Assembly: GCA_963782975.1 (NCBI GenBank) | Contig: CAWALT010000002.1 | Coordinates: 182,406-246,405 of the forward strand | From: an uncultured Alphaproteobacteria bacterium | GTDB taxonomy: Bacteria; Pseudomonadota; Alphaproteobacteria; 43-37; CAWALT01 | DNA: 64,000 bases | Direction of reading: 5' to 3' | Shown: positions 16,598 through 17,604 of the stretch, one piece after another | Layout of the letters: each line of letters begins with the position of its first letter | Numbering within the stretch: position 1 is the stretch's first letter | Program-made: the position numbers and the translations under genes | The notes under the pieces: generated by a model | Seen by the model: only the letters and a program-made list of their open reading frames with translations | What the model was told of the DNA's origin: nothing | Databases searched by the model: none

Positions 16598-17148
16598 GGG
16601 GCGCTTTTAAAGGCATGCGTATTGCATCGCCGACGAAAAAGCAAACTCGTCCAACGACGGATCGTGCAAGGGAAATGATTTTTAACATATTGGAGCATCG
16701 CTTTTGTGATTATCCTATCGACAACGCGAAGGTTCTCGATCTTTTTTGTGGCAGCGGGGCTTTAGGCCTTGAATGTCTTTCACGAGGTGCGCGCGACGTC
16801 CTCTTTATTGATTGGGATCGAGAGGCTCTTCAGGGATGTCAGGAGACTTTGAAAAAATGCCACGCGCAATCCTTAGGACGCATTATGCGCCAAGATGTAA
16901 CACGCCTTAAAGACGCTCCTTACTCTTTTGATTTGATCTTTATGGATCCTCCTTATCACCACGGGATGGTCCAACAGGTTATGCCAAGTCTCTTTGAGAG
17001 AGGATGGGTTACCTCTAAGAGTCTCTTTATTATTGAAACCGCTCATGATGAGGAGCTAAAAGAAAATATTCAGGCTTTGAGCTTAGAGCTCCTGCTCGAG
17101 CGTGTGTGTGGAGCAGCTAAAGTCTTTTTCATGCGTCAATACCTGTAA
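16585..17148 (+). CDS. rsmD: 16S rRNA (guanine966-N2)-methyltransferase RsmD
   Basis: DLFCGSGALGLE SAM-binding motif and the DPPY motif. 187 aa. The stop codon lies inside repeat copy 2. Confidence 0.9.
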   Translation: MRIIGGAFKGMRIASPTKKQTRPTTDRAREMIFNILEHRFCDYPIDNAKVLDLFCGSGALGLECLSRGARDVLFIDWDREALQGCQETLKKCHAQSLGRIMRQDVTRLKDAPYSFDLIFMDPPYHHGMVQQVMPSLFERGWVTSKSLFIIETAHDEELKENIQALSLELLLERVCGAAKVFFMRQYL

Positions 17149-17339
17149 GTGTTTAACAATACCCAAGGCAAGGGAAAACAAAAAATAAAAATACATGGGC
17201 AGGCAAGCCCAGGATAAGAAGGTCAAATGAGCAGGGGGTGAAACAGATCTGCCATGGAAAACAGGCCCTCTTTGAAAATGTTAGGGGAAAAGTGCGCTTC
17301 AAAGCCCTTTTCTATTTTCACCTCAGTAATAACCTCATA
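17141..17339 (+). repeat. dispersed ~200 bp repeat, copy 2
   Basis: Same element as 14679-14887. It overlaps the last 3 codons and the TAA of rsmD and abuts the trxB remnant. Confidence 0.8.
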
Positions 17340-17420
17340 CGAAAGTTCAGCACCGACATTTTCTGCCTGCAAGCGCATTTGCTCCATCAACTAGGGACCT
17401 TGAATGACATTCTTCCTTAA

Positions 17421-17604
17421 ATCCAGGATAATTCTCGACATCCGTGGTAATCATGAGCTGACCACCTGGCTGAGGGCTTAAAATCAGTCGTGGCCTCAAA
17501 TTGGCGCGCGAGGCGTAAATAGCTGCTGTATACCCAGAGCTCCCCCTCCTAATAATCAGCACTTTGCTTTCCTTTTTATAAGTTAAGTACTGGCTTATAG
17601 GCAA
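17421..17604 (-). pseudogene. trxB: thioredoxin reductase (trxB) N-terminal remnant, truncated after ~60 codons
   Basis: KVLIIRRGSSGYTAAIYASRANLRPRLI...GGQLMITTDVENYPGF matches the TrxB N-terminus ([23 protein letters not shown]...GGQLTTTTEVENWPG). The GxGxxG motif is degenerate. Homology stops where the repeat begins. The rest of the 85-codon ORF has no resemblance to TrxB. Confidence 0.65.

Follow-up and report, generated by a model that had tools for sequence, protein, structure and literature searches.

Host-associated bacteria such as Rickettsia and Sodalis carry decaying genes, and short dispersed repeats, namely, the Rickettsia palindromic elements and MITEs, are found in intracellular bacteria. 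The locus analyzed here is situated between glnQ and rsmD and contains a remnant of trxB together with a repeated unit. All searches refer to the window, i.e., the whole 64-kb stretch of DNA that was analyzed. The trxB locus would represent a long-dead pseudogene of the low-molecular-weight thioredoxin reductase in a deep-branching alphaproteobacterium. The best explanation, which is considered very probable, is that of a long-dead, truncated trxB pseudogene, with later local duplication of a piece across its truncated end.

Genomic Context and Taxonomic Placement

The window encodes a permuted, two-piece tmRNA of the alpha type (25867-26204; 232 bits) with the tag peptide ANSNMKLALNDNHNLAAVAA, which places the organism in Alphaproteobacteria. 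The RsmD, GlnQ, and LolA proteins of the window are known only from one NCBI/ENA assembly and from the Logan run ERR11571143. The closest non-self RsmD showed only 46% identity, and hence, the collections searched contain no close relative of this organism. No trxB was found near the nearest RsmD homologs or in Paracaedimonas contexts. Similarly, when the 80 metagenomic trxB loci with the highest similarity to the remnant were examined, none had a glnQ ortholog, rsmD, rluB, or lolA in its vicinity.

The two genes that border the remnant are intact, and are as follows:

17612..18370, minus strand, intact glnQ-like gene for the ATPase of an amino-acid ABC transporter, the upstream neighbor
16585..17148, plus strand, intact rsmD, the convergent neighbor (Pfam Cons_hypoth95, 1-180 of 182 model positions)

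The annotated genes of the window are intact and of the housekeeping type, including htpG, ftsK, ispH, the PBP1A gene, rho, pfk, fabI, and dnaQ, along with secB, valS, kdtA, lpxK, asd, histidine kinase genes, and parAB. The thymidylate synthase encoded at 24816-25787 is of the flavin-dependent ThyX type (TIGR02170, E 2e-60). Two further loci in the window contain internal repetition. The ORF at 46082-46918 (minus strand, 278 aa), which had no NCBIfam match, carries tandem repeats with a 75-78-nt period at 46261-46699. At 9534-9732, a 97-nt segment is duplicated with 102-nt spacing and 84% identity at the 3' end of the ORF 8057-9718, whose product, an acidic protein of 553 aa, has no recorded Pfam match.

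Identity and Extent of the trxB Remnant

The sequence-only reading, an earlier interpretation made from the letters of this DNA, had recognized the N-terminus of TrxB in the peptide KVLIIRRGSSGYTAAIYASRANLRPRLILSPQPGGQLMITTDVENYPGF, which is encoded on the minus strand and begins a few bases past the glnQ stop codon (17612). This identification was borne out by tblastn, by the NCBIfam model TIGR01292, and by profiles built for this analysis, all of which matched the peptide. The remnant was resolved into two segments in different frames:

17307..17580, minus strand, trxB pseudogene, the whole TrxB-homologous span (profile positions ∼2-92 of 300-321)
17413..17577, minus strand, segment A in the first frame, reading KKESKVLIIRRGSSGYTAAIYASRANLRPRLILSPQPGGQLMITTDVENYPGFKE, TrxB residues ∼2-56 (tblastn and direct reading)
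17307..17405, minus strand, segment B in the second frame, reading IQGP*LMEQMRLQAENVGAELSYEVITEVKIEK, TrxB residues ∼58-92 (tblastn and TrxB profiles)

In tblastn searches, which gave E-values of 4e-15 to 2e-20, E. coli TrxB aligned to 17574-17422 with 61% identity over 51 aa (E 4e-15) and Rickettsia TrxB to 17577-17413 with 62% identity. The frame-repaired peptide matched TIGR01292 with an E-value of 4.3e-26, its residues 4-88 aligning to positions 2-86 of the 300-position profile. Another TrxB model and AhpF-type models followed as the next-best NCBIfam families. The whole-protein score of the stub against TIGR01292 was 91.4 bits, which is below the curated cut-off of 343.45. Thousands of alphaproteobacterial thioredoxin reductases in a large protein collection matched the stub with 59-69% identity.

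Two TrxB profiles were constructed, one from 118 sequences (117 from Rickettsiales and that of E. coli) and the other from 65 full-length sequences of metagenomic loci. With the former and the latter, respectively, the segment 17580-17401 was matched at E-values of 2.5e-20 and 1.2e-23 and the segment 17411-17307 at 4.8e-7 and 1.2e-9, and these were the sole matches of both profiles in the 64 kb. The extent of the remnant thus differs from that given earlier, when similarity to TrxB was thought to end at ∼17421, leaving ∼60 codons of a gene that had lost ∼800 bp. TrxB homology continues in another frame to 17307 (profile positions 58-92, E 1.2e-9), so that ∼90 codons survive and ∼220 codons (∼660 bp) are missing from a gene of 310-321 codons. 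Beyond profile position 92, no similarity to TrxB was detected by profile searches near the locus or elsewhere in the window.

Residues ∼2-92 of the stub are collinear with TrxB (TIGR01292 and the E. coli and Rickettsia proteins), with 59-71% identity to the alphaproteobacterial TrxBs, including the signatures GGQL..TTDVENYPGF and GPWLMEQM. The stub is derived from the TIGR01292 family and is not a working member of it.

Inactivating Lesions and Coding Status

Three lesions were located within the surviving part of trxB:

17533..17550, minus strand, corrupted dinucleotide-binding (FAD) motif RRGSSG (comparison with 183 intact TrxBs; also present in Logan contig L001)
17406..17409, minus strand, 4-nt insertion TGTC between GFKEE and IQGP (direct reading; overlapping HMM matches in two frames)
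17391..17393, minus strand, in-frame TAG (TGG to TAG) at the invariant Trp of GPWLMEQM (column 100% W in 65 intact TrxBs)

The change of GxGxxG to RRGSSG, already noticed by the sequence-only reading, is a genuine departure from the family, as all 183 intact TrxBs read G[SA]G[PA]AG at this site. Of the FAD-binding G-x-G-x-x-G, the stub has lost the first glycine as well as the P-A. When read one base out of frame, the same 18 nt encode GGGALG, an intact G-x-G-x-x-G, at a gain of only 3-3.6 bits; RRGSSG may have arisen through a compensating pair of 1-nt indels instead of four substitutions. The TGTC insertion shifts the frame relative to the canonical five-residue spacing. From codon ∼91 onward, the NADPH domain, the CxxC redox center, and the C-terminal FAD motif are lost. 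Over the surviving span, 43 columns reach a conservation of at least 95% among intact TrxBs; the stub departs from 6 of these, as against a mean of 0.28 and a maximum of 2 for the intact proteins.

The decay of trxB claimed earlier is therefore well founded, the locus being a non-functional remnant with a corrupted FAD motif, a frameshift, an early stop, and loss of the NADPH domain and C-terminus. The stub has at least four independent lesions in its sequence and cannot yield an active enzyme. The locus is a case of ordinary, old gene decay in an otherwise intact stretch of genome.

An 85-codon ORF is present at 17604-17347, and the Logan gene caller placed a gene at its start, as would be expected if the stub, downstream of glnQ, retained a role as a short protein or a regulatory leader. 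Such a function is hardly credible: the FAD-binding motif has been destroyed, the end of the ORF consists of out-of-frame sequence, and departures from nearly invariant TrxB positions are more than 20 times as frequent as in intact genes. No homolog of a short trxB form was present among the database matches, the short ones being contig-end or frameshifted fragments of normal trxB. In two unrelated samples, trxB had been called as two adjacent ORFs (L089, 517-1496, and L090, 3001-3955), and four short trxB ORFs on long contigs (P0011, P0016, P0061, and P0082) had tails diverging from TrxB; all six are probably sequencing frameshifts rather than pseudogenes. In annotation, the appropriate label for the locus is that of a pseudogene, and no protein should be assigned to the 85-codon ORF.

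Organization of the Repeated Unit

Self-comparison revealed a repeat that is present in the 64-kb window in exactly two direct copies, 2.46 kb apart and 79% identical over 213 aligned columns. The features of the repeat are as follows:

14675..14886, copy 1, in the spacer between lolA and the glutamine amidotransferase gene, same orientation as copy 2 (self-comparison; 100% in Logan contig L008)
17137..17338, copy 2 (202 bp), in the interval between the stub and rsmD (79% identity to copy 1)
17141..17172, equal to 14679-14710, 32-nt stretch identical in both copies, containing the rsmD stop codon (self-comparison)
17196..17211, minus strand, terminator-like hairpin with T-run inside copy 2 (number of such sites not above that in shuffles)

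Copy 1 resides in a spacer of 613 bp. Copy 2 extends from nine bases ahead of the rsmD stop codon, taking in the last 12 nt of rsmD with the stop codon included, to the Tyr codon of YEVITEVKIEK. The edges are sharp, and no homology was found past either of them when both sides were examined. Copy 2 was earlier described as filling the ∼270 bp from 17421 to rsmD; it does lie in this interval and spans only 17137-17338 of it.

The chance of so long a perfect run (32 nt) between copies that show 79% identity otherwise is roughly 2%, and the identity could be explained by constraint or gene conversion. This run also holds a small hairpin (AACAC/GTGTT). The hairpin at 17196-17211, the stem of which is not conserved in copy 1, would possibly act as the terminator of a glnQ-trxB transcript. 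Within copy 1, a 14-nt A/T-rich inverted repeat, GCGAAAACAAAAAA / TTTTTTATTTTCGC (14710-14723 and 14856-14869), pairs the T-run region with the trxB-derived end; this inverted repeat is degenerate in copy 2.

Overlap of the Repeat With trxB and Proposed Order of Events

The sequence-only reading held that the stub ends where the repeat begins. It was observed instead that the repeated unit itself opens with 11 trxB codons in both copies. The last 11 codons of trxB (17339-17307) are situated inside copy 2 as collinear TrxB sequence, and the counterpart in copy 1 (14855-14886, minus strand) reads NDVTAEAKIKK. This overlap was evaluated in a fixed TrxB register by scoring against all ∼128,000 six-frame 11-mers of the window. 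The resulting p-values were 8e-6 for copy 2 and 4e-4 for copy 1, and remained unchanged when the references containing ITEV were left out; with the Rickettsiales profile, they were 4e-4 and 1.5e-3, respectively. The invariant Asp of TrxB is retained by copy 1, the residue being Glu in copy 2. The first 32 bp of the repeat are thus trxB codons in both copies, and ∼170 bp of the ∼205-bp unit is non-trxB sequence.

Since both copies open with trxB codons, and in copy 2 these are continuous with the rest of trxB, copy 1 appears to have been copied from the truncated end of trxB. By sequence comparison, copy 1 is most likely a derivative of the already truncated trxB end and not an independent element. 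The truncation point is common to the two copies, which indicates that truncation predates duplication, and the 21% divergence of the copies suggests that the truncation is old and that trxB has been dead for long. It is for this reason that, of the "ongoing gene decay" proposed earlier, the decay holds and the word "ongoing" is doubtful. The proposed course of events would then comprise truncation of trxB as the first step, followed by local duplication of a ∼205-bp piece across the truncated end, with trxB codon ∼80 and the rsmD stop codon as its limits, after which both copies would have drifted apart to 79% identity. The order of truncation before duplication is inferred by parsimony.

Alternatively, a dispersed repeat element could have replaced the 3' part of trxB, with recombination between copies of the element deleting it. 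The repeated unit does adjoin the stub, and its 32-nt identical core is a branching point in de Bruijn assembly, as would be the case for such an element. This explanation is regarded as improbable. A deletion model is at odds with the finding that both copies of the unit open with trxB codons, and the repeat-mediated loss of trxB suggested earlier does not fit the arrangement of the two copies in the window, which flank GATase-rluB-rsmD, all intact. Recombination between them would therefore remove those genes and not trxB. The repeat may also belong to a dispersed family that captured 32 bp of trxB by chance. Against a dispersed element are the presence of only two copies in 64 kb, the 2.46-kb distance between them having a chance of ∼8% if the copies were randomly placed, and the absence of any hallmark or match in a range of searches. 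Terminal inverted repeats were found in neither copy, the only inverted pair being the internal 14-nt one of copy 1. The folding energies were no better than those of shuffled sequences (z = 0.43 and -1.64). Searches of the repeat and spacers against Rfam gave no match at E ≤ 1, and translations of the repeat and spacer gave none in Pfam and NCBIfam. The whole unit had no blastn match in plasmids, and its 20-mer core was absent from viral contigs. Among the GTDB representative genomes, which do not include the source genome, the 20-mer core had only one chance match, in a Nostocaceae MAG. The duplication of an already truncated trxB end hence remains the preferred reading, and a more general lesson of method is that a repeat beside a gene remnant can be the remnant's own copy and is no proof of repeat-mediated deletion.

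The remainder of the repeat was also considered as a possible decayed C-terminus of TrxB. This was suggested by EGLFSMADL and GLFSMAGLSENFYLSPIQPA resembling EGVFAAGDVQDKIYRQAVTAA (the GD FAD motif), and in a post hoc PSSM, EGLFSMADL and GLFSMAGLSENFYLSPIQPA ranked 14th and 9th, respectively, of ∼128,000 positions. An HMM of the TrxB C-terminus gave only E ∼0.2 at Z = 1, and Smith-Waterman comparison with random segments gave p = 0.15 and 0.92. When 8,514 six-frame pieces were searched with an HMM of the rest of TrxB, the pieces of the repeat ranked 1984th or lower of 4,441. As none of these three unbiased tests lent support, the reading of the repeat as a TrxB C-terminus was rejected.

Comparison With a Second Assembly

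The locus was compared with a second assembly, consisting of the Logan contigs of run ERR11571143. Three of these contigs were 100% identical to the window, covering 3884-14708, 14681-16590, and 17448-23220, and include all of copy 1 and the RRGSSG region base for base. A k = 31 graph would branch at the 32-nt stretch, which accounts exactly for the contig ends at 14708 and 14681. The interval 16591-17447, containing copy 2, the frameshift, and the stop, was not recovered in Logan, and look-ups of the 55-aa ORF and of rsmD were negative.

The lack of 16591-17447 in the second assembly, together with the contig end at 17448 within the stub, is what might be seen if the repeat had caused a full-length trxB to be collapsed or wrongly joined. 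The repeat-free sites 16590 and 23220 of the window are contig ends in Logan as well, and hence, the end at 17448 is uninformative; the ends at 16590, 17448, and 23220 could reflect low coverage, strain variation, or a 31-mer shared outside the window. RRGSSG, the 4-nt insertion, and the TAG codon are located upstream of the repeat, where a collapse cannot produce them. The two copies, being 79% identical with a single exact stretch of 32 nt, are too divergent to collapse, and a second assembler reproduced both RRGSSG and copy 1. With lesions outside the repeat and copies only 79% identical, a collapse artifact is very unlikely, and mis-assembly of the trxB locus is unlikely.

Occurrence of Another trxB and Physiological Implications

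Neither tblastn nor the two TrxB profiles detected a second trxB in the 64-kb window, and no thiol-redox gene was present among its annotated genes. In a collection of 5.8 billion clusters and in the JGI contigs, identity to the stub did not exceed 71% for any protein, which argues against a recent in-genome duplicate of trxB and is still compatible with a divergent copy. The two Logan TrxB fragments that were examined came from other runs.

It can be suggested, with considerable doubt, that the stub was the organism's only trxB and that the organism has lived for long without an NADPH-thioredoxin reductase; the long duration would follow, if this was the only copy, from the fact that the two copies of the truncated end have diverged by 21%. 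In that event, a cell-walled alphaproteobacterium that makes LPS, possesses two-component systems, and has kept its gene set largely intact would have to depend on glutathione/glutaredoxin, on a non-canonical reductase, or on reductant from a host. If there is no other trxB, the organism would offer a useful natural example of how a cell lives in the absence of thioredoxin reductase; otherwise, the finding is a minor one. A search of the literature on trxB pseudogenes in endosymbionts and on the run accession ERR11571143 returned nothing useful.

Comparison With Known Systems

In contrast to a working TrxB, the stub has a corrupted motif, a frameshift, and a stop codon, and has lost the NADPH domain, the CxxC, and the C-terminal FAD motif. 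The repeat is similar to the Rickettsia palindromic elements and MITEs in its size (∼200 bp) and in being non-coding and intergenic. It deviates from them in having no terminal inverted repeats or significant fold, and in being present as two linked copies in the window with one end made up of trxB coding sequence. The remnant itself is comparable to the pseudogenes of host-associated bacteria, which likewise combine several independent inactivating lesions and partial deletion with intact neighbors. It differs from these pseudogenes in that the surrounding 64 kb is free of other obvious decay and in that a 205-bp piece of the remnant is duplicated nearby.
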